This document shows positions 32,613 to 64,000 of a DNA stretch of 64,000 bases, in pieces (the stretch's first letter is position 1; each line of letters opens with the position of its first letter). A model generated the notes under the pieces. The model was given only the letters and a program-made list of their open reading frames with translations, was not told where the DNA came from and searched no databases. This stretch comes from Mobula birostris. Its lineage: Eukaryota. Location: the NCBI RefSeq assembly GCF_030028105.1, contig NC_092386.1, positions 43,206,347-43,270,346 on the forward strand. The letters run 5' to 3'. The position numbers and the translations under genes were made by a program.

Positions 32613-32719
32613 TCTTCTTATTGTGCCTACATCTTTCTTAACCACAAGAGTGCACTCATTCATGTACTTTTAGCACATTGAACACTATCATTACTTACTC
32701 ATTAGCCAAGCAATTAGTT

Positions 32720-39155: not shown

Positions 39156-39814
39156 GAACCATGTATTGTGATTTGGCCCTTCATAGTTTTGTATGATTAA
39201 TGGCAAGAATTTTAAAATCTCCCAAATGCAATCATTCTTCTCTTCTCTGTACCTGGCTTGCCAATGAATCCAATCAGCTGATTGCCTGCATAGGCCCAGG
39301 AGGTGCTGCCATTAAATGAGCTGGTAGCAAATGCCCATTGAGAGTCTGTAGACAAATAAAAGTCTTCTTGCTCAAAGTAAAATTTCTCCAAATGCACATT
39401 TGTCATTACCAAACATAGCAAACTGACATATTTTTGACTTTCCTGATATCTGGCTTTTTCCCCCCAGGGTTAGTTTAAATTACAGACAATATAATCTTTT
39501 ATTCAAACAAATTTTCCAGGTTACTGGTCATTGAAGCATAAATTATCTTGAGAGGAAAAATAAATCAATGAATTCTGTGAGTGATTAGAAACAAGTCATA
39601 GATGGTATCTTGAGGTATTTAAAGGTATTGAAAAGTATTTAATGTAAAGGCATCTGTTTTCGAGGATTGGAAGAAGACCACACACCAGAAAAGAGAATGA
39701 AATTTGAGGTTTGCTATTATAATGAGGAGGAACCAGTTTATGACAGAATTAATCTAAAGGTTTTATTTCTAGATACTGTGGAGTCACAAGCTCAAGCATA
39801 GGACTTAACTTAAT

Positions 39815-39941
39815 CACAAAATAATCTGCAGATGCTGGGGTCAAAGCAATACTCACAGCACGATGGAGGAACTCAGCAGGTCGGGCAGCATCTGTGGAAA
39901 TGATGAGTTGACGTTTCAGGCCGGAACCCTTCGTCAGGACT
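39815..39941 (-). mobile_element. Miniature PLE-derived element with hammerhead motif, 15-bp TSD
   Basis: TSD AGGACTTAACTTAAT at 39800-39814 and 39936-39950; rc agtcCTGACGAagggttccggcctGAAACGTC. Confidence 0.85.
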
Positions 39942-40176
39942 TAACTTAATAGCATCTATCAATAAAACTTCATTCTTTCTTAAGACCATAAGACATAGGA
40001 GCAGAATTAGACCCATCGAGTCTGCTCCACTATTCAATCATGACTGATCCTTTTTTTTCCATCTCCTCCTCAACCTCAGTTCCCGACCTTCTCCTCATAA
40101 CCTTTGATGCCATGTCCAATCAAGAACCTATCAATCTCTGCCTTAAGTACACCCAACAACCTGGCCTCCACAGCTG

Positions 40177-41489
40177 CAGACATCCCACCCTGCAAAAACT
40201 CATTTCAGGGAGGTAGCACCCCTGCCCCCCGCAACTCCATATCCCTCCGCACCCCCCCCTCCCCCACTGTCGACCTCCAAGGGTGTATGTAATACTTTGT
40301 TTAGTGATTTTGTCTAATCTGTAAACCAAGTTGGGTATATGCAGCAAATGTGACATTAAAATATGTACTTATATTATCATGTTTATTCTATTACAACTTT
40401 AAGCAAGTCTACAGGGAGTTTGGCCTCATCACGTAGGACATCAATAGTGTAGCTCCTTAGCAGCTAGCCAGCTAGTTTAAACAACGTTAGCTATGCTGTA
40501 ATGACACCTGTTAAACTCACCTCAACATGTCTTTTACATTTTAACCCACCATGGGCAATAGAAAAGTCACTGTTGCAAACAGTGCAGCGAGCAACACTAT
40601 CACTATTTTTGAGGTCAACTGTAAAGCCTGCCCACAGAGAAAACTGATAGGTCTACTTAGCAGGGGTCCCCAACATTTTTTGCACCGCAGACCAGTTTAA
40701 TATTGACAATATTCTTGCGGACTGGCCGACGGGGGGGTTGTTAGTCACGACCGGAATATAGGTGATGTCAATAGCATCATAACATTTTAAGTAACATTTG
40801 GATATTAAACACACAGCGCATATTTTCCCCATATGAACATATAAAATCATTGCAACACGTCAATATCGCTGAATCAGTGCGAGCCCTGGGCTTGTTTTCC
40901 TGCAACAACACGGTCCTATTGAGGGGTGATGGAAGACATCGATACTCGAAGGGGGTTCCTTATGTCCAGTCTATTCCGCAATTTAGTTTTCGTTGCATTC
41001 ATTGCAGAAAATTCCGCTTCGCAGCGATATGATGTTGGAAATGGAAGCAATGTTTTCAGCGCTTTCGTGGCTATCTCAGAATATTTAGCCTTGACTTTGA
41101 TCCAGAATGCCGGCAGAGATGTTATGTCAAACAAACTTTTCAGCCCGCCGTCATTTACAAACTCGAGGAGTTGATCTTCTTCCCACGCTGACATGGATGA
41201 CGCGTGCGTAATGACCTTGCGTGCGTTCAAGTTCAACAGTGCATGACAGGGAATGAGGAAAGGTGCAAATGACTCATATCATTTCATATCGCCAAATCAT
41301 ATTGTTTCCTCACGGCCCGGTGGTTGGGGACCACTCTTAGCACGAAGAGAGACCAATCAGGATGCTCGCTCTCCCTCTCCCTCTCAAAAAAATCTATTTC
41401 CGGGATATTGTATATAATTTCCGGGTGTCAGGGAACCGCTATCGATATGCGGGAGACTCCTGGATCTTCCGGGAGAGGTGGGATGTCTG
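40177..41489. mobile_element. Non-autonomous DNA transposon, 13-bp TIR, 6-bp TSD
   Basis: TIR CAGACATCCCACC (40177-40189) / GGTGGGATGTCTG (41477-41489); TSD CAGCTG (40171-40176, 41490-41495). Confidence 0.88.
40661..41335 (-). mobile_element. hAT (Charlie-type) deletion derivative nested in the DNA transposon
   Basis: TIR CAGGGGTCCCCAAC / GGTTGGGGACCACT; partial TSD (CTA)CTTAG; hAT dimerisation domain FWIKVKAKYSEIATKALKTLLPFPTSYRCEAEFS..KTKLRNRL. Confidence 0.88.
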
Positions 41490-43174
41490 CAGCTGCATGT
41501 GGCAACAAATTCCACAAATTCACCACCCTTTGGCTAAAGATATTTCTCCACATCTCTGTTTTGAAAGGGTGTCCCTCTGTCCTGAGGCTGTGCCCTCTTG
41601 TCCTAGACTCCCCACCATGGGAAACATCCTTTCCACATCTACCCTGCCTAGGCGTTTCAACATTGGAAAGGTTTCAATGAGATCCCGCTTCACCCTTCTG
41701 AATTCCAGCGAGAAGAGACCCAGAGCCATCAAACATTCCTTGTATGATAACCTTTTCATTTCTGGTATCATCTTTGTGAACCTCTTCTGGACCCTCTCCA
41801 ATGCCAGCACATCTTTTCTAAGAAGAGGGGCCCAAAACTGTTCACAATACTCAAGGTGAGGCCTCACCAGTCGCTTATAAAGCCTCAGCATCACATCCAT
41901 GTTCTTGTATTCTAAAGCTCTTGAAATGAATGCTAACATGGCATTTGCCTTCCTCACCACTGTCTCAACCTGCAAGTTAACCTTCAGGGTGTTCTACACA
42001 AAGACTCCCAAGTCTCTCTGCATCTCAGATTCCTGGATTTTCTCCCCGTTTAGAAAATATTCCGTACATTTATTTCTACTACTAAAGTGCATGACCATGC
42101 ATTTTCCAACATTATATTTCATTTGCCACTTTCTTGCCCAGACTCCTAATCTATCTAAATCCTTCTGCACCCTACCTGTTTCCTCAACATTACCTGCCCC
42201 TCCACCAATCTCCATATCAACAAAGCCATCTATTCCATCATCTAAATCATTAATATACTGCATGACTCAGTCACTTAAATCAACATCTCTTTGGTCAAGA
42301 TCAAATTATCATACTTTAAATCAGCTGTAGCTGTCCGGACACACGCTGATAACCTTTAATGCTAAACCCTGGTCTCAGTAGGAATATAATCCGTATGCAG
42401 GACTCAGGAAGGTGCTCAGCTATGTGCATGTTTGTCAACAACTCTGCTTCACTTTGAGGTGACAAGAAAGAAAATGCCAGAGATTGTCACAGAGGAGCAA
42501 TCATCCTCAGTACTTTTTCTTAGAGAGTCAAAATACAGTCTAAACACTTGTTCAGTGGTGTAAAACTAGTTTGAACTCACAGTGCATTGTTTGGAGGATT
42601 GGTAAAAATTAGTCCCGTTAGTACTATAAAAGGCAATGATCTAAGAGAACTCTGGATATTAGAAGTTCCTGTTACTACCCTGCTCTTGTTTTTGTCAATG
42701 ACCTCTCTAAGGCCACGTGAAGACTCTGCCCCTTTAAGATTATGAACATCCAAGAGTTACACTGAAACCTGATGAATCTGAATCCCAGCCATTTTGCTAA
42801 ACAGCACCTGGTGTAACAACAAACATATGCAAGAAGTCTGAGAACTTTTGGCTGCAACAATACCAGAAATATGTAGCAGTCAATCAGCAATAGAGAAAGA
42901 TATGTTCAGTGTAGCTGCAGGCTCTACATGGCCCTAAAGATAGACACAGACAATAACCAGCATTTTCACTTTTTCAACTCGAACATCTACTATTTCACTT
43001 CAGATTGCAGCTTTTGCACTTTATTTTAACTTCTTAATTTTACTCTTGTTAGGAGATGTCAAGACTGCTTTTGATATAGCATTATTATTTGAGAAACGCT
43101 GGCAAATCATTTCTATGGAATATACAGAGTGTTTGCAACATATCCTTCTGGGCACAATGACCTATAATGAAATA

Positions 43175-43638
43175 CACTTGTTGGCCACTTTATTAGGTAC
43201 AGGAGGTCTTCTGGTCTTTTGCTGCTGTAGCCCATCCACTTCAAGGTTCAATGTGTTGTGCATTCAAAGATGCTCTTCTGTGCACCTCTGGCCATTCTCC
43301 TCTGATCAGTCTCATTAAAAGAGGGTTTTTGCCCGCCCACTGGATTTTTGTTTGTTTTTCGCATCATTCACTGTAAACTCTAGAGGCTGTTGTGTGTAAA
43401 AATCCCAGGAAATTAGCAGTTTCTGAGATACCCAAACCACACCGTCTGTCACCAACAATCATTCCGTGGTCAAAGTCACTTAGATCACATTATTTCCCCA
43501 TTCTGATGTTTGATCTGAACACAACCAAATTTCTTGATCATGTCTAGCTACTTTTTGCATGGAGTTCCTGTCACATGATTGGCTGATTTGATACTTGCGT
43601 TAACGAGGAGGTATAAAGTGTACCTTATAAAGTGGCCC
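43175..43638. mobile_element. Tc1-like MITE
   Basis: Inverted termini ggccactttattaggtac / gtaccttataaagtggcc; TA at the left flank. Confidence 0.7.
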
Positions 43639-43659
43639 TATATATGATGCATGCTGTCC

Positions 43660-43892
43660 TCTAATAACAATTAGGAAATAATAAGTAGTCTTATAGTACG
43701 GCAGAGGTATTGGTTGTGTTCTAAATTGTTCTGTATTTCATTAAAATACATAAACTGCTACTCAGTTAAACAGTAGTCTGTCTTTTTTATACTTTTAAAC
43801 TATTTCCATGAAATTTTGGTTAATTGGGACAGCCGCTTAATTGGACCAAAATGTACTTGTCCTGATGTGTCCCAATTAACTGGAATCCACTA
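43660..43892 (-). mobile_element. Partial pogo/Tigger-like MITE
   Basis: Reverse complement is homologous to 44198-44430. Confidence 0.7.
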
Positions 43893-44197
43893 TGGAGAGC
43901 CAAAAAAAACTTACTGCTTTTCATTTATTAACCAATTAGTAATTTGAACAGTCACTCTGGCATTAGGTTATGAGGACACTGTCTTAAGTATTAAATTTCT
44001 TGTTACAGGATAAAGGCAGTTCATGATGCAGGTATTTGTTAATAATTAGAAAGAAAAGTAGGCTGGTGAAAAAGGAAGAGTGACAAGCCCATTATTCTCA
44101 TGTGTTGGACTTCACACTAAAATCAGTTATGATTAATCTGTGTAACAAATTTGATCAAAATATACCAGAATAAGCACTATTGAGAAGCAGTCAAATA

Positions 44198-45232
44198 CAG
44201 TGGGTTATGGTTAATTGTAATACATCGGAACCGGTACACTTTGACCTAATTAAGTGGCTGCCCCAGTTAGCGGAAGTTTCATGGAAATAATTAAAAGATT
44301 TAAAAAAGACAAACTACCGTTTAACTGAGTAACAATTTATGTATTTAAATGAAATACAAAACAAATTAGACCTCTGCCAATATCTCTATGGTACTATAAA
44401 ATTGTCTATTTGTTCCTAATAGTTATTGATGGAAGAATTCATCTGATATTCGCAATGAACAAAATAAATGTAGACACCTAGTGCAGATAATGAGTTGTCT
44501 TTCTACAATGCTATTGATGTTTGCATCCTCCACATCTCCATTGTCATTGTAACATTCAAGATGATCGTTAATACCTTCAACCTTTTTTGTAGTTCCTAAT
44601 TTGCTGAAGCCTTCAAATTACTTAATTTTCACTCCTAATGATTTCTGGCATCTTCAAGCCTGTATGCTTGAAACCACAATGAACAAAACAGTCCTGAATT
44701 GTCTTACTGCTTATTTTTCCCTAACTATCAGTGATAAAAATCAAGCAACACACATCAAAGTTACTGGTGAACGCAGCAGGCCAGGCAGCATCTCTAGGAA
44801 GAGGTACAGTCAACGTTTCAGGCCGAGACCCTTCGTCAGGAAGGGTCTAGGCCTGAAACGTCGACTGTACCTCTTCCTAGAGATGCTGCCTGGCCTGCTG
44901 CGTTCACCAGCAACTTTGATGTGTGTTGCTTGAATTTCCAGCATCTGCAGAATTCCTGTTGTTTGCAGTGATAAAAATCACTTCTTTTTGAACACAAGCA
45001 CATGCAACTGGCGCTATTTAAAAATTGATCGTTGTAAGCACGGTGTAGTGTCTAAAGGCCACTGGTTAAAAACTGTTTGGCAACAGTCTTCTGTCCCAAT
45101 TAAATGGAAAAGCATTGCAAATAAGCTAAGGAGATCCCAGCTATTTTCTTGATTTAGTTTTTCTTCTTTAAGAGTTGTCCCAAATAAGCAGCTGCCCTGG
45201 TAACAGAAGGCCCAATTAACCAGAATACACTG
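44198..45232 (+). mobile_element. pogo/Tigger-like MITE hosting a PLE palindrome
   Basis: TA + CAGTGGGTTATGGTTAATTG ... CAATTAACCAGAATACACTG imperfect TIRs. Confidence 0.7.
44744..44965 (+). mobile_element. Fold-back miniature PLE-derived element, 15-bp TSD
   Basis: Arms 44741-44833 / 44841-44933, 7-nt loop, 35-nt tail; TSD CAGTGATAAAAATCA (44729-44743, 44966-44980). Confidence 0.9.
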
Positions 45233-46580
45233 AGTGGATAGGTACAAGTTAATGGTGACATTTTGTCCATCAGTCAGCCTGTAACAGGAAGCATACTGGC
45301 TATGTAAATAGTTAATAAAGTGCATTCATCTCTAATTAATGCATACTTTTGAATAATCTACTGCTTGATCAAAGACCGAGCTCTGGAATGTAAATTTAAG
45401 TAATTTTCTGTCTCTAGTCTTATTCAGAAAATTCTCCTTCTAGTACTCTCTTTGTTTTCAGCTGTTTTTCTGCACAAACCTGGTTCAACTAATCCTAGAA
45501 TTCTTTTAGATTTGTTCTTAAAGCTTCAGTTTTATGTTTGGCAAATAGTCTGTGTTAAAAGGATAGGAACATGAAGGGATCTAAATTGAGTTTCCATCAG
45601 ATCCACAGAAGCAGATCTTAGTCAGAAATCCAAAAGTGAACTCAGATTCATTTAAAATTCAACATATTATGTCTTAGGAAATAGTATTCAAATAGTAATT
45701 TGTAGCTTTAGCAAAATACCTTAATAATTTTATCAGATTGAGGGAACAGTACTTTAAAGTTCAGAAAGTTTAGGAAGTATGTTGTTCCAGACATAGGATT
45801 CTGTAAATACGGAATTCTTGAAGCTCAGTTAATTAAATTAGGGAAGACAAGGATAAGCAGGATCACCTACAATATTGTTAGCTATCTTGCCCCAGCTACC
45901 CTAATCAAGATGGTAGTTGAGAACAACCCATCATCTATGATAGAAATGCAATTATGACTTTGGAATTTTGGAAGATATAACCCCAAAAAAGGCTAAAAAA
46001 GACTTCAAATCAATTGAATGTGACTGTACAGAAAAGGAGATTATGTATTTCCCTCTCAATTCGCTCTTTTGCCTTTCTGAAGTGCATTTTTACTGTACAT
46101 GGGCTTGTGCTTCACTGGAGAATATCAGTGTGTGCAGTGCTGAATGAGGGAGCAATAGTTGCTCAGTCTGGGGTGTCCGACATTATTGTTTTCTGGAACC
46201 AGGGTAGACATTGGTTCAAGCTGTAGCTCTGTTGTTATATTGTCATCATGATTAATAACATCATTTTCTATTCCTTATTCATCCAATCGTTCAGCCTACC
46301 AAAGCACAAGGTGCTTTAGCTCAAAGCCCGTTTGCTCCGTATAGAACATAGAATAGGATAGCACAGTACAAAACCTTCAGCCCGCATTGTTGCTTGACAT
46401 TTAAACCTATACCAAGATCATTCTAATTCTTTCCTCCCCCTTTATTTCTCTTTCATCCATGTGTCTATTTAAGAGTCTCTTAAAAGTCTGTAATGTAACT
46501 GCATCTAGCACCACCCATAGGAGCATATTCCATGTGCCATTACGCCCTGTGTAGAAAACCTATATTCCCTTACTCACTCT

Positions 46581-46692
46581 TCCTTCAGTTAGTCCTGACG
46601 AAGGGTCTCGGCCTGAAACGTTGACTGCACCTCTTCCTAGAGATGCTGCCTGGCCTGCTGCGTTCACCAGCAACTTTTATGTGTGTTGCTTG
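46581..46692 (+). mobile_element. PLE pLTR monomer
   Basis: Near-identical to the right arms at 44.9 and 63.8 kb; ends at GTGTGTTGCTTG. Confidence 0.85.
46591..46626 (+). ncRNA. Minimal type-I hammerhead ribozyme motif
   Basis: AGUC-CUGACGA-AGG(GUCUCGG)CCU-GAAAC-GUU/GACU: stem I AGUC:GACU, stem II AGG:CCU, self-complementary AACGUU in place of stem III. Confidence 0.7.
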
Positions 46693-48914
46693 TACATCCC
46701 ACCGGTACTTTCTTCCAATCACCTTAAAATTATTCCTCCTTGTATTATCCATTTCCGCCCTGGGAAGAAGTGTCCAACTTTACACTCAATATCTGCCTCA
46801 TATCATCATGCACACCTCTATCAAGTCATCTTTCATTAACATTTGCTCCAAAGAGAAAAGCCCTAGCTTAGTCAGCTTTCCTCATAAACCAGGCAGCACC
46901 CCGGTAAATCCCCTCTGCATTCTCTCCAAAGCTTCCACATCCTTCTTATAATGAGGTGACAAAACTGAACACAGTACTCTAAGTGTGATCTAAACAGAGT
47001 TTTAGAGAGCTGCCACATTACTTCACAGCTCTTGAAATGTATCCTTTGACTAATGAAGACCAATATAGAATACACCTTCTTAACCCCCATATCAAATTGC
47101 GCACAACTTTGAGAGATCAAGACGTGGATCCCAAGAACCCTCTGTTCCTCCACACTGCTAAGAAACATACTATTAAACTTGTGCTCTGCCTTCAAGTTCA
47201 ATATTCCATAGTGTATCATTTCACATGTTGCAAGATTGAATTCCATCTGCCACTTCTCAGCCCAGCTCTGCATTCTGTCTATATCCTGTTGTACCCCATA
47301 AGACCCTCTACACTATCCACAACACCACCAAACTTGGTGTCATCTGCAAACTTACTAACCCTCTCTTCCACTTCTTTATCCAAGTCATTTATAAAAATCA
47401 CCAAGCAGCGTTCCCACAACAGAACATCACTGCTCTCCAACCTCCAGCCAGAATAACCTCCACCTACTACTACCTTCTGATTTCTATGAGCAAGCCAATT
47501 CTGTTTCCACACAGCCAAGTTTCCCTAGATCCAATGCCTCTTGACTTCTGAATGAGCTTGTTATGGAGAACCTTGTCGAATGCCTTACTAAATTCCATAT
47601 ACACCATATCCTCTGCTTACCTTCATCAATTTGCTTTGTCACTTTCTCAAAGAATTCAGTAGGACTCGTGGGCCATGACCTGCCCCTCACAAAGCCATGA
47701 TGACCATCCTTAATCAGAATACATATTTTTTCTCCAAATGCTCGCAAATCCTTTCCAATAGTTTGTCCACTACTAACATAAGACTCACTGGCCTATAATT
47801 CCCAGGATTATCCTTATTAATTTTCTAGAACAAAGGAATAATGTTAAAAACCTTCCAAACTTCTGGTACTACTCCTGAGGTTAATCAGGACAAAAGTGTC
47901 ATTCCAAAAGAGCAGCAGTCTCTTCCATCACTTTCCATAGTAAACTGGGGTAATATTCAATCTGCTCCATGGTCTTATCTATTTTAATATTTTTCAAAAA
48001 TTCCAGTGCATTCTTTTTCTTAACCTTGACATTTTCCAATATATTAACCTGTTCTACAACATCCTTACATTCATCAAGGAACCTCACACTGGTGAATGAT
48101 GAGGCCAAGTATTTAAGAAGAACTTCTCCTACCTCATCTGACTCCAGGCATATTTTCTCTTTTATCCCTGACTCTTTTATTCTTTGCGGATTTCCTTAAT
48201 CCTAGTCACCAAGGCCTTCTCATATCCTCTTCTAGCTCTTCTAAATTTGTTCTTAAGCTCCTTCCTGGCTACCTTGCTTCCTAAACATTAAATATATTTC
48301 TTTCTTGCTCTTGACTAAAAGGTCCATTATCTCTTGTCAACCATACCTACTTCATGCTACCACACGTGGGCATCCCTGAGAAATGGTGTGATTGGCTCTT
48401 ACATATGGGGGAAGTTAATCATTTCAGGAGCCAACTCAGTTGATGGTCTTCTGTAGAAGATGCAAGAACAATACTCAAACTTTGCAATCCAATGCTTTTA
48501 GTGATAGATATATCATTCATGTTGAAAACTGGTCTAGGAAAAATTAGCATTTCAATTAGTCCTAATTGAACAATGAAATTAAAATCATATATAAAAGCTG
48601 ATCAAGAATATTGATGTTTAAGCTGAGAGTTGTAAACATTCCCCTTCAGCTCTGACATAAAGTGGAACTAGAGCTTAACCAGGCACACTCTGATGGTTCA
48701 CAGCTTGGCCAGGCTTGCAACATTAACCTGCTCTTGTGCACTTCCTTGAGGAATCCTGCAGAGCAGTCTGGGATGGTGACTTCTTGTGGTGATGTTTGGC
48801 AAAACAAGGGTAATATCGGATTCTCATATGAGCTCAGATCAGTAATCCATCAGGCCCTTGTAACTGAACAAGAAAAGAGCTCCATCTACAGAAAAGATAC
48901 TAGCATGGAGAGAA

Positions 48915-49842
48915 GATCAGCTGACTGACAGGAGGGTGCCAGTGATTCGTGGTGCTTCTCAGAGCCAGTGTTGGGACCGCTTCTTGTATGTCAATGATTT
49001 GGGTGACATAACTGATGGCTTTGTGGCCAAGATTGTGGACGATACAAAGATAGGTGGAGGGGCAGGTAGTGTTGAGGAAACAGGGAGACTATAGAATGAG
49101 TGAGACCAATTCGGAGAATGGGCTAAAATGTGACAGCTGGAAATATAGTGTAGAGAAGTGTATGATCATGGACTTTGGTAGAAGGAATAAGGCAAATGCA
49201 ATGATAGCATTCATTTTGAAAGGACTCGAATATAAAAGCAAGGCTGTAATGCTAAGGCTTTTTAAGGCATTGGCCAGATTGGATGACGATCTATGAGCAA
49301 TTTTAGGCCCCTTATCTAAGAAAGGATGTGCTGGCATTGGAAAGGAGGAACATGAGAAAGATCTCAGGAATGAAAGGATTAATGTATGAGGAGCATTTGG
49401 TGGCTCTGAACCTGTACTCGGCGGAATTTAGAAGAATGGGGGTGAGGGGGGAATCTCATTAAAACCTATTAAGTACTGGAAGGCCTGGAGAGAGTAGATA
49501 GGGAGAGAGGATGTTTGCTTTCGTGGGGGAGTCTAGAACCAAAGGGCACAGCCTCAGAAAAGAAGGACATCCCTTTAGAGCAGAGCTGAGGAGGAATTTA
49601 TTCAGCCAGAGGGCGGTAAACCTGTGGAATTCATTGCCTCACAAAGCTGTGGAGGCCAAGTCATTGGGTATATTTAAAGTGGAGGTTGATAGGTTCTTCA
49701 TTAGTAAGGGCATCAAAGGTTATGGTGAGAAGGCAGGAGACTGGAGTTGAGTGGGAGAAAAGATCAGCTATGATTGAATGGCAGAGCAGACTCGATGGGC
49801 TGAATGGCCTAATTCTGCTCCTATGACTTATGGTTTTATGGA
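48915..49842 (+). mobile_element. CR1 3' fragment with internal deletions
   Basis: KANAMIAFILKGLEYKSK, FSQRAVNLWNSLP, CR1 3' UTR. Confidence 0.85.
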
Positions 49843-50789: not shown

Positions 50790-53212
50790 TAACTAACCTA
50801 GCAGGGAGATGGGAACCAGAATGATAGGGCAGTTGGTATACAAGTCAATGCAGTGTGTAATGAGATTCAGACAAATGTCAGGCAGATGAGAAGGAAAAAC
50901 TGCAGTCAGTGGGATGAGGTGTAGGGTAACATGGGGGCAAAATCTAAAAGGGTGATGAATACAGAACTTAAGGTTTGATATTTGAATACACGCAGTATAA
51001 GGAATAAGGTAGATGATCTTGTTATGCAGTTTGATGTCGTGGGTATCACAGAGTCGTGGATGAAGGAAAATCATATTTGCAGGCTTAACGTCCAAGGATA
51101 TGCATTGTATCGAAAGGACAGACAGGCAAGCAGAGGATGTGGGGTTGCTCTGTTGGTAAAAAAATGAAACCAAATCCTTAGAAAGAGGTGACATAGGATA
51201 AGAGGATGTAGGATCCTTCTGGGTACAGTTAAGAAGCTGCAAGTGTAAAAAGACCCTGATGGGAATTATTTACAGGCCTCCAAACAGTAACCAGGATGTG
51301 GGATATAAATTACAATGGGAGATAGAAAAAGCATGCAAAAGGGGCATGTTATGATAGTGATGGACGATTTTAACATACAGGTAGATTGGGAAAATCAGGC
51401 TGATGCTGGATCCCAAAAGAAGAAACTTGTAGAATGCCTATGAGATGGCTTTTTAGAGCAGCTTGTGGTTGAGCCCACTAGGGAGAGGCAATTCTGGATT
51501 GGGCATTGTGTAATGAACCAGATCTGATTAGGGAGCTTAAGGCAAAGGAACCCTTCGAAGACAGTGATCGTAATATGATAGAATTCACCCTGCAGTTTGA
51601 GAGGAGACGCTAAAATCAGATGTATCAATATTACAGCGGAGTAAGGAGAACTATGGAGACATGAGGGAGGAGCTGGCTAAAGGTGATTGGAAAGGGACAG
51701 TAGCAGGGATCACAGCAGAACAGCAATAGCTAGTTTCTGGGGGCAATTTGGAAGGTGTAGGATAGATACATCCCAAAGATGAAGAACTATTCTAAAGGGA
51801 GTATTTTGTAGCCATGGCTGACAAAGGAAGTGAAAGACAGCATAAAATGAAAAGATACAGCATATAATCAAGCAAAAATTAATGGGAATTTAGAGGATTA
51901 GAAAGCTTTTAAAAACAAACAGAAAGCAACTTAAAAACTCCATGAAGGCAAGCTAGCCAATAATATAAAAGAAGATAACAAAAGTTTTTCAGATTTATAA
52001 AAAGTAAAAGAGAGGCAAGAATTGATATTGGACCATTGGGAAATGATGCTGGGAGGTAGTAATGAGGACAAAGAAACTGCGAACAATCTTAATAAGTATT
52101 TTGCATTGGTCTTCACTGTGGAAGACACCAGCAATGTGCCAGGAGTTCAAGAGTGTCAGGGGAGGCAAAAGTGAGCGTAGTTGCCATTACTAAGGAGAAA
52201 GTACTTGGGAAGCTGAAGAGTCTGAAGGTAGGTAAGTCACCTGGACCACATGGACTACAGCCCAGGGTTCTGAAAGAGTTGGCTGAAGAGATTGTGGAGG
52301 TATTATTAATGATCGCTAGATTCTGGAATGGTTCCAGAGGACTGGAAAATTGCAAATGTCACTCCAGTCTTTAAGAAGGGAGGAAGGAAGAGAAAATTAA
52401 ATTCTGGACTTTGGAAATTGGAATATAGTGTACGGAAGTATATGGTCATGCACTTTGGCAGAAAGAATAAAGACGTAGACTATTTTTTAAACAATGAGAA
52501 AATTCAAAAATTTGTGGTGCAAAGGGATTAGGGAGTCCTTGGGCAGGATTCTTGGAAGGTTAATTTTCAGGTTGAGTCATTGTTAAGGAAAGCAAATGCA
52601 ACAATAACATTCATTTTGAAGGGACAAGAATACTAGAACAAGGATGTAATACTGAGAATTTATAAGGCATTGGACAGACCACCCTTGGAGTATTGTGAAC
52701 AGTTCTGGGCCCCTTATATAAGAAAAAAATGTACTTGCATCGGAGAGGGTCCAGAGGAAGTTCGAGAGAATGATTCTGGAAATAAAAGGGTTAACATATG
52801 CAGAGCGTTTGATGGCTCTGGAATTGTACTCGCTGGAGTTTAGAAGAATGGGTGGGGGTGATTTCATTGAAACCTATCGAATATTGCAAGACCAAGATAG
52901 AGTGGATGTGGGGTGGATATTTCCAAAAATGGGTGAGTCTAGGACCAGGAAGCATAGTTTCAGAACAGAGGGATATCCTGTTTGAAAAGAGATAAGGAGG
53001 AATTTCTTTAGCCAGAGGGTAGTGAATCTGTGAAATTCATTTCCACAGACAGCTGCGGAGGCCAAGTTATTGAGTATATATAGAGCAGAGACTGATAGTT
53101 TCTTGATTAGTCAGGGCTTCAAAGTTTACGGGGAGAAGGTAGGAGAATGGGATTAAGAGGTGCCGATTCGATGGGCTGAATGGCCTAATTTGTTTCTATA
53201 TCTTATGATCTT
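50790..53212 (+). mobile_element. CR1 ORF2 with the RT core deleted near 52400
   Basis: LNTRSIRNK..VGITESW (APE); VPEDWKIANVTPVFKKG jumps directly to WKLEYSV; 3' UTR present. Confidence 0.88.
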
Positions 53213-53353
53213 AACTAAGTATTGGATGTTTGCAATTATAACATTGGAAGAAATACAGTAAATACATGTTAAGAATATATTTTTACTACTTCTCCAGTGA
53301 ACTTCCAAAGGTAGAATGAGTGAAGGTTTGTAAATGCTACTGGCCAGTTTCAA

Positions 53354-53483
53354 CGACAAACACAGAAAATCTTCAGATGCTGCAAATCCAGACCTATGAA
53401 AGGGCCTCGGCCTGAAACATCGACTGTACTTTTTTTCATTGATGCTGTCTGGTCTGCTGAGTTCCTCCAGCATTTTGTGTGTG
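53354..53483. mobile_element. Miniature PLE-derived element with inverted tail, 13-bp TSD
   Basis: TSD TGGCCAGTTTCAA (53341-53353, 53484-53496); antisense tail ~53354-53392 then sense body with decayed HHR (ctatgaaagggcctcggcctGAAAcatcgact). Confidence 0.82.
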
Positions 53484-53838
53484 TGGCCAGTTTCAATGTC
53501 CGATTTTCCCTCAGTTTCCGGTAGAAGAAACCCGAAGGGCGTAATTTTTTTGGACTTAAACTGGTGATAATAAATTAGCAGCTGGATTTTATTTTCAATG
53601 TCTAAAATGGGCTACTGATTTATTTATGGGACAGTAATTTTGAAGCCTATATTCTTTGATTAATTAAAAATAAAATGATACATGTTTGTTAAATTTCAGT
53701 AACCTGTTAATTTAGCACAGTCAGGTGCATTTGGCATAACTGCTTTGAATAATTATTGGCCATCCTGCTCAAAATGCACTCAACTGGACAACACAAGAAC
53801 AACAAGAATCAGGCAAGAGACTACTTCAGAGGGTTAAA

Positions 53839-54672
53839 AGTCAAGTCAAGTCAAGTCACTTTTTATTGTCATTTCGACCATAAGCTGCTGGTACAATACA
53901 CAGTAAAAACGAAATAACGTTCCCCCAGGACCCTGGTGCTACATGAAACAACACAAAACTACACTAGACTATGTGAGACAGCACAAGGTTGCACTAGACT
54001 ACGTAAAACAACATAAAAACTGCACTAGCCTACAGACCTGCACAGGACTACATAAAGTGCACAGAACAGTGCAGGGCAGTACAATAATTAATAAACAAGA
54101 CAATAGGCACAGTAGAGGACAAATTACAATATAATAATAAATGATGTAGATGTCAACCTAGACTCTGAGTATTGAGGAGTCTGATGGCTTGGGGGAAGAA
54201 ACCGTTGCACAGTCTGGTCGTGAGAGCCTGAATGCTTCGGTACCTTTTGCCAGATGGCAGGAGGGAAAAGAGTTTGTATGAGGGGTGCGTGGGGTCCTTC
54301 ACAATACTGTTTGCTTTGCGGGTGTAGCGTGTGGTATAAATGTGTGTAATAGTGGGAAGAGAGACCCCAATGATCTTCTCAGCTGACCTCACTATCCACT
54401 GCAGGATCTTGCGATCCGAGATGGCACAATTCCCGAACCAGGCAGTGATGCAGCTGCTCAGGATGCTCTCGATACATCCTCTGTAGAATGTGGTGAGGAT
54501 GGGGGGTGGGAGATGGACCTTTCTCAGCCTTCGCAGAAAGCAGAGAGGCTGCTGGGCTTTCTTGGCTATGGAGCTGGTGTTGAGGGACCAGGTGAGATTC
54601 TCCGCCAGGTGAACCCCAAGAAATTTGATGCTCTTAATGATCTCAACGAAGGAGGTGTCAATGTTCAGCGAA
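53839..54672 (-). mobile_element. Rex1/Babar LINE 3' fragment
   Basis: [44 protein letters not shown]; (caagt)n tail. Confidence 0.9.
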
Positions 54673-55973
54673 AAACGAAAAGCTTACAAAATGCTCTAGA
54701 ATAATTTTGCCTTTGAGTGTTGTAAAATGAATGACACTAGATCAGCTGCTTGTTTCTTTCCTTTGAGTCTGTTATTAAGGATGTCCTCTCTATCAGCCAG
54801 AAATATCCTTTACATTTGCTCCTGCGCTATTCACAGTGACAATCTCATTGCCTCTGTTGTCATCCTTTTGTCATTTGCTGCATGTTAGCTCTAACTGGGA
54901 AGCTCTGGAAAGTTGGCCACTTTCCCTGGGCATTCCTCCAACAGTCACTGTGGGAGTTTTTGACTGATTTCTGGACATCAACACTTCCTGAAAAATTGGA
55001 ATTTAGAAAATAAGTGCTGACTACTCTTACATAGAGTACCCTTGGATTCACCGTCCTCTTCAACTAACAGAGCAGAGCCTGTGTGGAAAATGCGACAAGA
55101 CCTTTGGGAACCTACTTAACAAATCTTATGAACTCTAGTGGAGCTGGCTAGCCCCTCAATTACACAGGCATATTTATTGGAAAAAAATGAACTATCAAAT
55201 TACAAAATGAAACATTATTGCCATTATTTGCTTACAGTCAACACTTCTCAGAAGGATCTAAAAACTGCATTAATAATGATTTACTGGAGTTATAAATAAT
55301 GAAAAGCTATAAATAAACTTAAAGGTACTACTTAGGGTTACTTATCTTACTGAGCAAGAAAGAGGGTCTTTATGTATGCTCTTTCATCTAAAGGGCAAAT
55401 TCCTTACTTTTATTTTGTGCTTGTCTTTGAGGTTTTCTCTTTCCGAAGTAGTCTTTACTGGATGAATTGTTTAAAAAACACAATCAAGTGGTAGCAATTC
55501 TCCAGTAGCAATTTGTGATGCACTCAATAACATCATGAAGAACAGACCATCAACTCAGCTGTGTGATTTGCAAAGAAGCATATGGTGTAGAAAGGTCAGG
55601 GAAAAATGCAAAGGTTTAAACAATACAAAAGAAAATTTTACATTGCACATTGATCAACCCAATTGAGAAAAGCACTTTCATCTGGAAACACAACTATATT
55701 CCTGATAAAAAACAAGATTTTCCTATAGATATCAATTGTATGTCACTGTTGCTATTGGTGATTTTTTAAAATAATTCAGATAAAATCTAACATTGATTTT
55801 CTGCTTTCTTCTCTTAACTCTTCCTATCTCAATTGCCATGTACAACATTTCTGATCAATAATAAATGCATAATAGAATTTGACCTTTAACAAAATAAAAC
55901 ATCACGAAAAATTGTTGATATGTAGGAATTTTGCTTGGAGAAGTAAATATATCTGTTGCTTTAGTCATTACCA

Positions 55974-57940
55974 TGTTCAAAGTTCAAAGCTCAAAGTAAA
56001 TTTATTATCAAAGTTCATATATGTCACCATTTACAACCCTGAGGTTCATTTTCTTGCAGGCAATTCATAGTAAATACAAAGAAACACAATAGGATCAATA
56101 AAAAATGCACACAACAAGACAGACAAGCAATCAATGTACAAAAGACAATAAACTGTGCAAATACAAAAAGAAAAAAAATAATAAAAATAAACAAATAAGC
56201 AATAAATATCAAGAACATGAAATGAAGAGTCCTTGAAAATGAATCCACAGGTTGTGGGAACAGTTCAGTGATGGGGAGAGGGATATTGAGTGAAGTTATC
56301 CCATCTAGTTTAAAAGCCTGAAGGTTGATGGGTAATAACTGTTCCTGAAGCTGGTATTGTGGGTCCTGAGGCTCCTGTACCTTCTTCCAGATGGCATCAG
56401 TGAGAAAAGAACATGTCTGGGGTGGTGGGCTCTTTGACGATGGATGCTGCTTTTATTATTATTAGTAGTAGTAGTAGTCATACTTTATTGATCCCAGGGG
56501 AAATTGGTTTTTGTTACAGTTGCATCATAAATAATAAATAGTAATAGAAGCATAAATAGTTAAATAGTAATATGTAAATTATGCCAGAAAATTATGAAAT
56601 AAGTCCAGGACCAGCCTATTGGCTCAGGGTGTCTGACCCTCCAAGGGAGGAGTTGTAAAGTTTGACGGCCACAGGCAGGAATGACTTCCTATGACGCTCT
56701 GTGCTGTATCTCGGTGGAATGAGTCTCTGGCTGAATGTACTCCTGTGCTCACCCAGTACATTATGTAGTGGATGGGAGACATTGACCAAGATGGCATGCA
56801 ACTTGGACAGCATCCTCTTTTCAGACACCACCGTGAGAGAGTCCAGTTCCATCCCCACAACATCACTGGCCTTACGAATGAGTTTGTTGATTCTGTTGGT
56901 GTCTGCTACCCTCAGCTTGCTGCCCCAGCACACAACAGCAAACATGATAGCACTGGCCACCACAGACTCGTAGAACATCCTCAGCACCGTCCAGCAGATG
57001 TTAAAGGACCTCAGTCTCCTCAGGAAATAGAGACGGCTCTGACCCTTCTTGTAGACAGCCTCAGTGTTCTTTGACCAGTCCAGTTTATTGTCAATTCATA
57101 TCCCCAGGTAATTGTAATCCTCCACCATGTCCACACTGACCCCCTGGATGGAAACAGGGGTCACCAGTACCTTAGCTCTCCTCAGGTCTACCACCAGCTC
57201 CTTTGTCTTTTTCACATTAAGCTGCAGATAATTCTGCTCACACTATGTGACAAGGTTTCCTACCGTAGCCCTGTATACAGCCTCATCCCCCTTGCTGATG
57301 CATCCAACTATGGCAGAGTCATCCGAAAACTTCTGAAGATGACAAGACTCTGTGCAGTAGTTGAAGTCCAAGGTGTAAATGGTGAAGAGAAAGGGAGACA
57401 AGACAGTCCCCTGTGGAGCCCCAGTGCTGCTGATCACTCTGTCGGACACACAGTGTTGCAAGCACACGTACTGTAGTCTGCCAGTCAGGTAATCAAGAAT
57501 CCATGACACCAGGGAAGCATCCACCTGCATTGCTGTCAGCTTCTCCCCCAGCAGAGCAGGGCAGATGGTGTTGAATGCACTGGAGAAGTCAAAAAACATG
57601 ACCCTCACAGTGCTCGCTGGCTTGTCCAGGTGGGCGTAGACATGGTTCAGCAGGTAGATGATGGCATCCTCAACTCCTAGTCGGGGCTGGTAGGCGAACT
57701 GAAGGGGATCTAAGTGTGATGTGTTCAATGGTGGGGAGGGCTTTCCCTGTGATGTACTGGGCTGTATCCACTATTATTTGCAGTCTTTCTCATTCAGGAA
57801 CATTGGTGTTTCCATACCAGGCAGTGAGGCAACCAGTCAGTATATGTAGTCAATAATCAGCTCCTTGGTTTTGCTGACATTGAGTGAAATGTTATTGCTG
57901 TGGCACCAATCAGCCAGATTTTCAATCTCCCCCCTATAAA
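55974..57940 (-). mobile_element. Older Rex1-type 3' fragment split by a younger Rex1 (55974-56452 and 57719-57940)
   Basis: Same terminus as 30772; continues after the insert with ENLADWCHSNNISLNVSKTKELIID. Confidence 0.78.
56453..57718 (-). mobile_element. Young 5'-truncated Rex1/Babar LINE (RT domain)
   Basis: LDPLQFAY..FFDFSSAFNTI..GAPQGTVLSPFLF..KFSDD; FYESVVASAI..SFLPVAVKLYN; (tag/tta)n tail. Confidence 0.95.
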
Positions 57941-58234
57941 TGTTTGTCTTCTGAAAATGATAATGGAGTTCATGTGTTGTAATATGATTGATATCATCAT
58001 GTAATATTTTAAAGTACATAAGAATATGTTTAACGAACTTACACAATGACAAACGACTTCCTTTATACAGCAGTTTTAATGTAATAATACATTTCAAGGG
58101 GATTAAGACCATTTGGCACCAAGCCATATAAGGAAATATTAAGGGAAAATAGGCTTTAAGAATAACTTTATAGAAGGAAAGGCAGGTAGGGAGATTAAAG
58201 GAGGGATTTGTTGTAATGAGAACACTGGGATTTT

Positions 58235-58970
58235 GCACTGGAATACAGCTGGACTGAGTGATTGGATGAAAATATGGAAAATAGGGCTCAATGTTGGGGA
58301 AGTGTGAAGTCGTGCTCTTCAGAATCATCAAAAGTCAGCTGTGTAAAGGGACTTGGGAGACCTAGTGGAGGATTTCCTACAGGTTAATTTGCAGGTCGAT
58401 TTGAGAGTAGGGAAGGCAAATGCAATGTTAGCATTAATTTCAAGACTATAATACAAAAACAAGGATGTGATGCTGAGACTTTATAAGGCTTTGGTCAGAC
58501 CACGCTTGGAGAATTGTGAGCAGTTTAAGCCTCTTATCCCAGAAAAGATGTGCTGATATTGGACAGCGTCCAGAGGCCGTTTATGAGAATGATCTTGGGA
58601 ATGAAAAAGTTGGTACATGAAAAGTGTTTGATGGTTCTGGGCCTGTACTCTCTGGAGTTTAGAAGAATGAGGGGTGATCTCATTGGAACCTATAGAATAA
58701 TGAAAGGCCTAGATAGACTGGATGTGGAGAGGATGTTTCCTATAGTAGGGGAGTCTAGGACCAGAAGTCATATCCTCAGGATAGCCATAGGATGGTGAAT
58801 CCAGAGGCCAAGTCATTCAGTATATTTAAAATGGAGATTGATAGGCTCATATTAGTAGGGCATTACAGGTTAGAGGAACAAGGCAGGAAAATGGGATTGA
58901 GAAGGGTCAACCAAAGATTAATTGGGCCAAATGGCATAATTCTGCTTGTACTGTATGCCTTATGGTTTAA
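58235..58970 (+). mobile_element. CR1 3' fragment
   Basis: LGLYSLEFRRMRGDLIGTYRIMKGLDRLDVERMFP. Confidence 0.82.
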
Positions 58971-59019
58971 AAGGTGGATTGTTATCCATGTGAGACAGAC
59001 CGATAATGAGTGAAGCTCA

Positions 59020-59645
59020 GAAGGGATCCATGTGCTCTAGTGCATGAATCTCACAAAGTTAGCAACCCAGGTGTCTGGAGTTTAAGGATAAGGATGTTCA
59101 TTATCATATACAGGACACTTGTGAGGCCACATTTGCAATACTCTGCACAGTTTTGCTCCCAATAAAAAAAAGATAGATGAACACTGGAAGTAGCCAAAGA
59201 GGGGTCATCAGCCTAAATCCTGCATTTAAATGGTTGTCCTAGCAAGAGAGGCTAAAGAGTTTGGATCCTCAGAGTTTCAAAGAATAGGGGTGACTTTATT
59301 CAAACATATAAGATCCTAAGGGGACTTGGCAGGTAGATACTGAGATGTTTTCTGTAGTGGGAGAACAAGGGACATGACTTCAAACTAAGATGATCTTTTA
59401 GAAAAGATGTGCGTAATTTTTTTTCCTTTCAGAGGATAATGAATCTCTGAAATCTCTGGAATTCTCTGCCTCAAAGCAGAGATGACGGTAGATAAATACT
59501 TGATTGATTAACGAATTGAAGGTTATGGGGAATTAGCAGAGCAGAGGAGTTGGGGTCAGCAAGAATCAGCCATGATTATATTGAGTGGCAGAGCAGGCTT
59601 GAGGAATACGCTAGTATACTCTTGCCCCTATTTCATTTATTTCCT
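59020..59645 (+). mobile_element. Old CR1 3' fragment
   Basis: gtgaggccacatttgcaatactctgcacagttt..., cagccatgattatattgagtggcagagcaggct. Confidence 0.65.
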
Positions 59646-62600
59646 GTGAGTTCTAGAGTCCATGGCCACTGGAACCTGAAGCTCTCAGTAGCTGTTCAGG
59701 TGTGCTGAGTATAGCCGGGCTATATTACCATTTAGAATGGGATGCTCAACAAACCAAAAGTGAAGGAAGGCTGGAGGAGATTACAGAAATACAGTACGAG
59801 GTCATGAAGGGATTCAAAAGCAAGGATGGGAAATTCAAAAAAGTGTTGATTTCCCAAGATGACTGAAAATGCTCTACCATGAAAGCAAGTAAGAAAGATA
59901 ATTTTGGCCAAGGAGTAGCACACTTTTTTTTTAACTAAAGGACCTCATTTAAAGGAAAGAAACAAATGTCTTATCTGATGTCAAATCTTATACCGTAAAC
60001 CAAGTATAAACCTGCCATATCTATATTTTGCCATCACAATCCTAAATGGTCTAAATAAACTCAGCCCATGAAATGGCGGGGATAAAGGTTGATAACTATT
60101 TAACCATGAGGCAGATGCAATTACAGCAATTAAATGGGTTTGGACAGGTACATGGATAGGAATGAAACAGAGAGGTTTGGGCCAACCACAGTAAAATGGG
60201 ATTAGTGTAGATAGGCGTTTTGGTCAGCATGGTCAAGTCGGGCTCTACGATACTGTGAGATGATAGCAGCTGCAGAGGGCCTTGGCTGACAGGTCTAATC
60301 TGACCAACTACGGAAGGATCAATGGATTCCTGAGTATAAAATTTATTAGTTTGGACTTTTGAAGTGAACAACAGAGGAAATAAAAATAGTTGAAAAATAC
60401 GCTTATTCTAATTTATTGTGTCTTCATTTAGTTTCTCAAAGAGCATAGTTTAAACTTTTAGAATTTCAGTTTTGATTCTTTCAGTTCAATCAATGGTACA
60501 TTGTCACTGTATTCAGAAGATAAGCTTAGACTATCCCAGAAGGAATTAGACCAAATTCCAAATAAAGCTGCTCTATCATTCCTTGATATTGGCCTTTATA
60601 GAATCACAGGGAGACTGCACATAGCAGGAAGTCATTCGGCCTATCAAGTCAATTCTAGTCCTATATAAGAGCAATCCAGCTAGTCCTGTTCCCTGCCAGC
60701 TAACCAAAGCCCTGCAATTTTTTTCCTTGTAAGTAGTTAAAATCTTCCTTTTGAACATTATATTTTTTTATCCCCATTGCTATTCCTAGCACTGCATTCC
60801 AAAGTCTGAATACACCCTGCATTAAAATAAAATCTTATACCCATATCAAGGAATGGTAGAAGAAACTACCTCTGACTTATGTCTCAAAGGATATCCAAAA
60901 CATCTTCTGAACACAGTGAGCATATACTGCTAATTAAAATTGAAAGCCTTATGACTGAAACTAGTCTATGAAACTGTTCCCATGAGTGAAGTGATCAAGA
61001 ACTTCGGGACAAAGAATGAAGATAATCAGCAGAAGAACCAAATGTACTGAGAATGCAGAATGTGAAAGAGGCTAAAATTGGAGAAGCACAGTGTTCTTGA
61101 AGAGTCATCGGGTCTCCAGGAGCTTTCATCATTGTTTAGCAGCAATGCCAGGGAGGAATTTTATACACATAAATGAGAATTTCAGCAGCCCACACAGGAT
61201 GCACAATTGTTTATTTCCAGCATTCCTTGCAGTATTGATCCACTTGCAATAGAAAGGGAAAATTTTAAGGATCAGCTAAAAAGTTTGGGAAGAGGGCTTG
61301 CAGCTGATCCCTAAGCAACCAGAGGGAATACACCAAGGCTGCCCTTTTGTGGTGTCCCAATGGAGAGTTCAGCTTTCATAGGGGAAAGGCTTGACTGCAG
61401 CTTGTCCTCTGTACTACGGAGGATCACGGAGCTCGTTTGAACATCATAAATACCATCCAATCATTTATTCTTGTTGCCACTACCCATCTTGCTAATAAGA
61501 GCAGATGTACAATTAGAGCAGTCAAGCTTTCGTATATACAAGCACACATCAATTACATTTTATTAAATTTGGACTGTCCCAACTGTCAGGATTCCTTCGG
61601 CTTCAGATTTTCTCTAGTCAATCGGATAAAACTGAACTTTTGAAGGAGGACACTCTTGGCAAATTGAGCTTGATTTATAATGAACCTTTGTTATTTACTA
61701 ATCAGCATACCTTTGTGCATGTTATGATATTAAAAAAATCATACCACCTTAATTTGACTTGAGAAGTACACTGAAAGCACAATCCTTTTCTACTGATCCT
61801 CACTTCTAGAAACTTAGCACCTGATTACATTGATCTTTCTTCAAGTTAGAGTAGAACAAGGTTGTAAAATTCCACTGTTCGGATAAAGAACATGGGCTTT
61901 GCTCTCTTGTTGCATGAACACCTCCTCAGCATGCAGACGTCTAACTACGCCCAGTAACAACCTACTGTCACATCCAACTCTCACATCAGCTCCAGTTGCT
62001 TTAATACAATTATGATACAAATACAAAATATAAACTTTGAGAGCAAACCGATATATTCTGGACAATCCTTCCGCTGTTTTCTGTAAATTTGTAATATACT
62101 TTACGAAATAGACTGTAGTTGCTTTACACAATTATAGTCTAAGCTGTTTCATTTGTGTGAAACCCAAAATGTTTGAAAAGAGTCAAACTTCACAAGCAAT
62201 AAAAAAATTACAAAATATTCATTACCTAGAATCTGTTAATCCAACTTTCATCACCCGCACCAAGGAAGGACTAGGTATTTTATCCAGACATACGAGAACC
62301 TCAGAGTGCTTTCAAAAAAAGCAAAAGTAAAATACTTGCTGACACAAACTTCTCTAAGATTACATCCTCATCTCCAGTTTCTGGCCAAAGACTAAAACAT
62401 TTGGTCGGATAAGCAATACTGTCCATTATAAATCATAAGCAACAAAAAGAAGCTCGTGATTTCAAAGTTGGATTTAATGTTTGTTCAAGTGCCATCCAGT
62501 GACAACGCAAACTTCATTGGCATACCTTTATTAAAGCAATTGAAATCTTTCTATCAGCTGCTTTGGATGCTTAATGTATGTATAACACTGGACTTAATAA

Positions 62601-63635
62601 AAAAAATCTCTTCAATATATCTATATATGCATTTAGAATACAGAGTTGTTGATGTTCAGTCTGTTTTATGTGTTATATTGCTCCAGAGTTGATAAAGTTA
62701 AAGGAAATAAATAGATTGTGATGGTCATTTTTTTTAAATGGTAGCTATCATTTCTCACCCAGGTGTGTTGAGTTTAGAAAAGGAATTTGCTGAAAATGTT
62801 ATCCCTAACCTGTAGCTATACAAATTTTAGCACCTGAATGTTTTCCTGTGCATCTGACATCTAGTTTTTGATGACCTATGAGACTTAACTTAATTTTTTT
62901 GGATCCAATAATGTCAACTTGCTGTCTAAAGTCATCATTATTTAAAATGGCAAGGCCTACAATGCCATATACAACTTATGGTCTTTGTTGAGAAGCAGGA
63001 AGTGACTTACTCCCAATACTACTAAAATATAGTGCAGCTGCTAAAATATAGTTTATTTCTAAACCTAAATTCTACTTTATCAATATTCTATCAAAAATCA
63101 TCACAAAATGCATGACTTCAAAACATGCAGCTTCTTTCCTTCCCATAATTTTTCAGTCCCACTTCATGGAAAAAATATTGAATCAATTGATCAATTAATA
63201 GATCAATAACTCTGTTTAGACATTCCACATTAAGAAGTACCTAATTGGCCGAGGCTAAATGCTTTTAAAAACATATCCTGAAAATCAATAATGCAGTAAC
63301 TGCATTTTAAACTGAAGAATGCACACAGCCATCAGGAAGAAGATGGATTCCTATAATCTTTGAAAGGCATGAAGCAGTACAAACAAGAAAGGCCACACAT
63401 TATGTCCTCTCATTTAAGGTTTTACTTTTTTGATGATCTTATATGTTATTAGGTAACTAAGTATCCTTAATTAAATGCTTAATTGAACAATTTAGTTCAC
63501 TCAAATGCAATAGCGGTTAAAGTTGATCAATCCACATTTTCTCCTTTGTTACTTATATATTTCAACATGCAGAATGTTGTGTGTTTTCCAAAATTAAAAC
63601 CATGCAACGTGAATTCCAAGAAGACAGGAATAATT

Positions 63636-63894
63636 AGCAACACACATCAAAGTTGCTGGTGAACACAGCGGGCCAGGCAGCATCTCTAGGAAGAGGCCCA
63701 GTCGACGTTTCGGGCCAAGACCCTTTGTCAGGGCTAACTGAAAGAAGCTTCTTTCAGTTAGTCCTGACAAAGGGTCTCGGCCCGAAACGTCCGACTGTAC
63801 CTCTTCCTAGAGATGCTGATGGCCTGCTGTGTTCACCAGCAACTTTGATGTGTGTTGCTTAAATTTCCAGCATCTGCAGAATTCCTCATGTTTG
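63636..63894 (+). mobile_element. Spacerless palindromic miniature PLE-derived element, ~13-bp TSD
   Basis: Arms 63636-63747 / 63748-63859 centred on AAG|CTT; 35-nt tail 63860-63894; TSD AGGAATA(A/G)TTAGC (63626-63638, 63895-63907). Confidence 0.9.
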
Positions 63895-64000
63895 AGGAAT
63901 AGTTAGCCACTGATGGGCAGTTAAAATGCTCTAACATGTTTGTATTTTATTTTAAAACTAACAGGTGCAGTATATAAACAACTTTAAATGTTTTATTTGA

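Follow-up and report, generated by a model that had tools for sequence, protein, structure and literature searches.

Short hammerhead-related inserts in the ray Mobula birostris: probable truncated stubs of an abundant Penelope-like element

A stretch of 64,000 nucleotides (nt) from the genome of the ray Mobula birostris (contig NC_092386.1, positions 43,206,347 to 43,270,346; below, the window) carries five related short inserts, copies A to E (Table 1). They are most likely dead, truncated stubs of the 3' pseudo-long terminal repeat (pLTR) of a Neptune-type Penelope-like element (PLE), freshly made from uncut RNA. A first reading of the sequence alone (the sequence-only reading) had reported the five inserts as products of such an element, bounded by target-site duplications (TSDs), and had offered two origins, extreme truncation or a retrozyme-like non-autonomous family. 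All five were present where it had placed them, with the start of copy C shifted to ~46566. The ray family is an ordinary though extremely abundant PLE, and the pLTR hammerhead is already published. Comparisons with the literature refer to the accessible parts of the sources cited.

Insertions were surveyed in a blind sample of 141 stretches of 10 kb (1.41 Mb), placed at round coordinates on large contigs of the 4.01-Gb genome, and among pattern-match loci, of which 50 were fetched from the first 100 listed. Thirteen further regions fell past the ends of small contigs and dropped out. The end counts took in arms of at least 86% identity, and loci L244, L261, and L246 were excluded as overlaps or duplicates. 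Unit positions are numbered from the first letter of stem I (+1).

The insert unit is the end of a coding element

The unit consists of a minimal hammerhead, a body of ~65 nt, and an optional tail of ~35 nt, and it is the 3' pLTR of a PLE of ~3.5 kb encoding reverse transcriptase (RT), a CxxxxCxxC linker, and a GIY-YIG endonuclease. An element of autonomous type (RT plus GIY-YIG) thus ends in exactly this unit, which bears out the attribution to a Neptune-type PLE. In a search with the unit of copy B, copies L016 and L014 extended beyond the hammerhead into a pyrimidine-rich 3' untranslated region (UTR) and the end of the GIY-YIG open reading frame (ORF). Upstream walking found the frame open over RT, the C-x4-C-x2-C linker, and GIY-YIG, for 545 amino acids (aa) in L045 and 786 aa in L061, both open from RT to the stop; in L193, a copy of the blind sample, a frameshift ends an open stretch of 974 aa. 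The element ORF had 1,761 homologues at E<=1e-20, the closest named proteins being those of Mobula (92-93%) and Hypanus, and Pfam matches to RVT_1 and GIY-YIG were weak (E 3e-4 to 9e-4, under the curated cut-offs).

The C-x4-C-x2-C linker is visible in the translations, ahead of the endonuclease. A CX2-5CxxC linker in this place is described for Neptune and Nematis and as missing from Penelope/Poseidon (PMC8557442), so the finger points to Neptune or Nematis rather than Penelope/Poseidon. Tandem copies have the order 3' UTR, hammerhead, body, tail, ORF leader, and ATG, with a leader of 35 nt directly after the tail and the ATG 170 nt past the first letter of the hammerhead. Partial tandems were common, as 15 of the 26 copies with the 5' part of the ORF extend upstream into the tail or pLTR (5' end at or before +90).

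Further features were noted in the coding copies. A Pro/Ser-rich repeat of ~205 nt in the N-terminal part of the ORF (reference positions 440-645) varies in copy number (L078:2564-3200, L217, and L193). The letters right after the tail differ among tandem copies L209-L231 in T-run length and single changes, and these variable junction letters may record template jumps or self-insertion. One PLE copy with its flanks occurs four times (L035-L038; G000:C5 near 3.83, 3.96, 4.08, and 4.21 Mb) at 99.3-99.6% identity and ~125-130 kb apart, so that either a large segmental duplication in tandem or a repeat of the assembly is present. Two ray gene models under host gene names, P0001 and P0005, contain large pieces of the PLE ORF and are probably annotation artefacts or exonised PLE copies.

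Short inserts form a continuum with the coding element

Insert lengths were continuous up to near-full length, and 5' ends formed a ladder from +100 to beyond -1000, both in the blind sample and among the first pattern matches. Five common variants were about as frequent in the short arms (32) as in the long ones (68). Short arms were scattered over the tree, and two sets of identical rows contained short and long arms alike. The exact palindrome junction of copy B occurred 39 times in the genome, compared with 30,044 core matches. A palindromic master, first hinted at by a search whose query contained that junction, was rejected on this count. Some short arms (L168, L157, and L150) do not end with the tail but continue for several nt of the ORF leader. 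The continuum, the shared variants, the non-clonal junctions, and the leader letters favour stubs made fresh from the RNA of the coding element and, between the two origins offered by the sequence-only reading, extreme truncation.

A non-autonomous family resembling short interspersed nuclear elements (SINEs) would have short masters, with the Penelope protein acting in trans to copy stubs that start at the front edge of the hammerhead and are transcribed by themselves through an internal promoter. Published examples of non-autonomous PLE derivatives exist (PMC8557442), and such a family would agree with the sharp 5' boundary at +1/+2, found also in older subfamilies, with the passage of most ORF-bearing tandems beyond this edge, which hints at a separate short template class, and with a starred clade of five short arms. 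The variants common to short and long arms, the identical rows that mix the classes, the ORF-leader letters past the tail of some short arms, and the non-clonal junctions speak against it, and we consider it improbable; a minority of short masters may be compatible with the data.

Some results weigh against the origin of the inserts as stubs of a coding PLE. The tree is poorly resolved (93 columns) and its labels are more clustered than in shuffles (19 label changes; shuffled mean, 25.5), partly through duplicate long loci, and the starred clade includes no long arm. No copy examined is open from the ATG to the endonuclease stop, the ORF being covered by overlapping pieces of different copies, and current activity of the element would not be implied by these sequences. 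A core without covariation had been named beforehand as a refuting result; compensatory changes in the stems were not above shuffles (5 pairs, with 57/500 shuffles as high; score, 405 of 500) in alignment A1, which excluded 11 hammerhead regions out of 100 for their length changes. Such an outcome is to be expected of copies that descend from close masters and decay neutrally.

Target sites, 3' ends, and two-armed inserts

A TSD could be assigned to 39 of 69 young insertions and to 18 of 105 older ones, against shuffled-pair means of 0.25 and 0.55. The TSDs were mostly 12-16 bp long and ~65% AT. The 3' ends of the inserts fell into two clusters, at about +90-105 and +125-143, and 38 of 43 two-armed inserts combined one tailed with one tail-less arm. 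The tail-less arm extends further 5' in 17 of these 38 asymmetric inserts, so neither arm is a fold-back copy of the other and two primings are needed. Self-priming on an antisense template has been proposed earlier (PMC3846280). Fold-back self-priming as a general cause of the palindromes was ruled out for the 17 inserts; it is compatible with symmetric two-armed inserts such as copy E.

Solo pLTRs left by recombination between both pLTRs of tandem insertions would also yield TSD-bounded monomers, and solo pLTRs were noted in Adineta (PMC3846280). The 43 head-to-head inserts are, however, impossible by recombination, and the upstream ends of tandem copies show no pile-up at +1, in contrast to the stubs, leaving this origin scarcely credible.

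Some arms start exactly at +90 and contain little beyond the tail (L077:3662-3707, L127:3831-3872, L131, L157, and L218); they may form another, smaller pile-up close to the inner site of priming.

For the Anolis element PAc, a Poseidon PLE, initiation inside the RNA at two sites bounding the tail and AT-rich targets were described, and in vitro both strands were extended and uncut RNA was the main substrate (Frangieh et al. 2024, PMC11167929). The ray family resembles PAc in its two inferred RT start sites at the tail bounds, its AT-rich targets, and the lack of 5' ends at the cut site. PAc differs in belonging to another clade without the linker finger and in its ORF, which starts inside the hammerhead and includes the start sites, whereas the ray ATG lies 35 nt beyond the tail (PMC11167929).

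By analogy with this element, the endonuclease of the ray PLE would make a staggered cut in AT-rich DNA, and RT would initiate internally on the RNA, at either of two sites separated by ~35 nt. Priming from one DNA end would give a tailed or tail-less monomer, and priming from both ends, one per site, would give two complementary DNAs (cDNAs) joined head-to-head through microhomology as inversions or palindromes. Each stub would likely be made afresh from the uncut RNA of the coding element as a dead-end product, with the hammerhead as a passenger in it and not the driver.

5' ends pile up at the front edge of the hammerhead

Random 5' ends had been named beforehand as the mark of simple truncation. 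The ends were indeed random over the ladder, but a sharp pile-up stood at the front edge of the hammerhead. Among 96 arms reaching +6, 33 end within -6 to +6; the rate over the adjoining 100 nt upstream would predict 3.4. The density of 5' ends per nt in the blind sample was 1.31 at the edge, 0.42 just downstream, and 0.09 upstream, an enrichment of 3- to 14-fold with a hazard that was not constant, part of the downstream ends being artefacts of how older subfamilies align. Over the whole genome, a purine replacement was counted 1,514 times at position 0, as against 345 times at -1 and 545 times at -4; at +1, 2,579 non-A letters were counted. About one-third of the cDNAs that reach the front edge would stop there. 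A splice-acceptor origin, which the pyrimidine tract and AG ahead of the edge might suggest for the pile-up, was rejected because the TSDs adjoin +1/+2 directly, without intervening exon letters.

The cut site of the hammerhead showed no excess of 5' ends (980 versus 1,115 at a neighbouring control position, whose pattern was slightly shorter), and 4 of 141 arms end at +31 to +35, so the templates were probably uncut RNA. This largely refutes a retrozyme-like cycle, in which self-cleavage would free unit RNAs or circles that are reverse transcribed and inserted. The minimal type-I hammerhead with palindromic ACGU at helix III and the existence of more-than-unit tandem copies would suit such a cycle, and pLTR-related retrozymes are published (bioRxiv 10.64898/2026.07.22.740005). 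Head-to-tail arrays of the short hammerhead unit were absent from the window and from the sampled insertions, however, and the core pattern is kept in only 51 of the 143 sampled insertions, which together with the missing cut-site ends makes this cycle very unlikely.

The front edge may be the transcript start, with the stubs as complete copies of the first 100-135 nt of the RNA, a reading that we favour, though tentatively. The letters at +1 and -3 match the initiator consensus, YYANWYY, which is short and degenerate. A start site within the pLTR is described for Penelope (PMC2377424; PMC8557442). The ratio of G to A was 922:592 at position 0; elsewhere, counted by eye in the first 100 rows each, it was 48:52 at -4, 50:50 at -1, 42:58 at +36, and 66:34 at +32, and the base before +2 was T46 G34 C20. 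A G at position 0 is ambiguous as a sign of a cap because head-to-head junctions can supply it. Two results count against a transcript start: none or one of the 11-12 ORF-bearing tandem copies stops at the edge (Fisher p = 0.017 for 0/11), and the G excess at position 0 has a parallel at the cut site (66 G among the first 100 rows) and is not cap-specific.

The same two results would fit a pile-up caused by stalling of RT or by a joining hot spot, through RNA or cDNA structure or stem I microhomology, and not by the template's 5' end; the identity of the inserts as PLE stubs would be unchanged. A predicted fold with 12 upstream bases also refolds the region into a hairpin that buries the core. 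On the other side, the edge lies at the same letter in subfamilies whose upstream sequence differs, and monomers such as L251 and L173 place their TSD directly against +1/+2. For the pile-up alone, stalling or joining is a real contender, although we lean against it.

If the front edge were the transcript start, a broader scheme could be imagined, in our view rather unlikely, in which the edge is a capped Penelope start and internal priming in the 5' pLTR makes a cDNA of 100-135 nt that resembles the 'strong-stop' cDNA of retroviruses. Integrated directly, this cDNA would account for minis in the tens of thousands, and on transfer to the 3' pLTR it would regenerate tandems; some minis would perhaps be transcribed and re-copied in a SINE-like manner. 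No account of this ray PLE family, or of 5' ends piled up at the front edge, was found in the literature searched, which took in neither most subscription journals nor the supplements on bioRxiv.

Hammerhead motif and abundance in the genome

Judged by its letters, the master motif agrees with the minimal hammerhead described in the literature, down to the palindromic ACGU required for dimers. The CUGANGA / GAAA / NUH core, helices I and II, and the palindromic 15-16 positions are found in the master and 36 sampled family copies, and stem positions were 86% paired, against 17-50% in slid controls. Like the published minimal hammerheads, the ray motif has no helix III, a palindromic ACGU, an extra base before helix II, and a short helix I, and the published motifs, too, are mainly single, dispersed, and attributed to truncated PLEs (PMC4209133). 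Unlike them, its helix II has only 4 bp.

The blind sample contained 143 pLTR-bearing insertions, or one per 9.9 kb (125 with another reference and grouping), as dense as the one per 13 kb guessed from the window or denser. If the sample is typical, the genome would hold ~400,000. An exact 28-mer from the unit had 30,044 genomic matches, against 0 for the reversed control, and 41 strict minimal hammerheads, 36 of them of this PLE family, were found in 1.41 Mb, against 0, 1, and 0 in three shuffles; on both comparisons the inserts are not due to chance. Extrapolation would give ~100,000 strict motifs genome-wide, compared with published counts of ~4,000 in the coelacanth and ~9,000 in Xenopus tropicalis, obtained with a different descriptor (PMC4209133). 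The one supplement table of that paper searched had no shark or skate entry. The very large ribozyme load suggested by the sequence-only reading consists mostly of the motif in decayed or truncated form, and the ribozyme itself is a predicted one.

Two minimal hammerheads with different stems, L179:6754-6807 (+) and L179:1705-1753 (-), probably derive from other Penelope families.

The five inserts of the window

Endonuclease-bearing relatives were found for all five copies, at 92-100% identity for B, C, and E. Those of copy A (L026, L178, and L126; 89-91%) and of copy D (L182; 86%) are located behind a GIY-YIG ORF, and the forward arm of copy B shows 100% identity, across 124-125 nt, with both L013 and the endonuclease-bearing L016. 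The 13-15 bp TSDs reported for four inserts were recovered on A, B, D, and E, and the same four have tails. Copy C has no tail, and no TSD was found in its flanks; it takes in 24 nt of the element 3' UTR and starts 15 nt before the 46581 given earlier. The 5' end of copy A is the front edge of the hammerhead, between +1 and +7, ambiguous through microhomology with the TSD, whose right copy overlaps the first 6 letters of the element. The arms of copy B are joined through ~2 nt of microhomology.

A hammerhead core common to all five inserts, as first described, was not found: CTGAnGA...GAAAC is intact in three of eight arms (A, B inverted, and C), and a strict descriptor requiring both stems accepts only A and C. 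The inverted arm of copy B keeps CUGACGA and GAAAC with the 5' strand of stem I cut away, and both it and copy C, whose stems are intact, have U at the cleavage position.

Table 1. Inserts and target-site duplications in the window
Feature	Position	Strand	Description
Copy A	39815..39941	-	Tailed monomer, older subfamily; core intact; stem I 3/4 pairs
TSD of A	39800-39814 (left), 39936-39950 (right)		15 bp
Copy B, inverted tail-less arm	44744..44841	-	Unit +3..+100
Copy B, forward tailed arm	44841..44965	+	About +11..+135; starts after CUGANGA, without motif
TSD of B	44729-44743 (left), 44966-44980 (right)		15 bp
Copy C	46566..46692	+	Tail-less monomer, -24..+102, within LINE fragment
Copy D	53354..53483		Two-armed, older subfamily, without CUGANGA; inverted tail-only arm (~53354-53390, minus) and tail-less arm (~53398-53483, plus)
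TSD of D	53341-53353 (left), 53484-53496 (right)		13 bp
Copy E, inverted tail-less arm	63636..63747	-	About -11..+100; G8>A in core
Copy E, forward tailed arm	63748..63894	+	-11..+135; G8>A in core; head-to-head junction
TSD of E	63626-63638 (left), 63895-63907 (right)		13 bp, 1 mismatch

An Rfam scan gave no match to a hammerhead family. Matches to mir-5681 and mir-961 were below the gathering score and hairpin-driven, and were rejected as artefacts of the palindromes. A possible sixth, heavily decayed hammerhead fragment lies at 1450-1482 on the minus strand (79% over 33 nt, E 0.31). The window is rich in diverged repeats resembling long interspersed nuclear elements (LINEs), e.g., at 7946-8731, 24471-25396, 32188-32636, 38316-38953, 49142-49839, and 52412-53160, which are presumably 3' fragments of the CR1/L2 type.

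Relation to known systems and meaning

The ray family works like, and belongs to, the endonuclease-positive PLEs. It shares with the Neptune and Nematis type a single ORF of RT and C-terminal GIY-YIG with a CX2-5CxxC linker and, with endonuclease-positive PLEs at large, the partial tandems that form pLTRs, an inverted 5'-truncated arm, a tail of 30-40 nt at one end, and heavy 5' truncation (PMC8557442). It differs from those described there in its very high extrapolated copy number and clear TSDs of 12-16 bp, and from endonuclease-positive PLEs in the literature searched in its front-edge pile-up. Non-LTR retrozymes are likewise non-coding, with a type-I hammerhead, kinship to PLE pLTRs, and long TSDs; they are tandem repeats, typically with canonical hammerheads, that are processed to circles (PMC7229834; bioRxiv 10.64898/2026.07.22.740005). 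The ray inserts, unlike these, occur dispersed, as monomers or head-to-head pairs; their lengths grade into those of a coding element, and they lack cut-site ends.

Counts of hammerheads and predictions of hairpins or microRNAs in ray genomes call for caution, as transposon stubs in decay make up most of them. With young copies in the tens of thousands, a transposition cycle that is poorly understood becomes open to genomic tests at single-base level, with two priming sites on opposite DNA ends, an uncut RNA template, and a fixed front-edge stop as testable features. The regeneration of the pLTR has been called unexplained (PMC2377424), and if the stop is the transcript start, it would bear on how pLTRs are regenerated. 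If the 'strong-stop' reading is true as well, the ray genome would document PLE priming, stopping, and pLTR rebuilding in 400,000 events.

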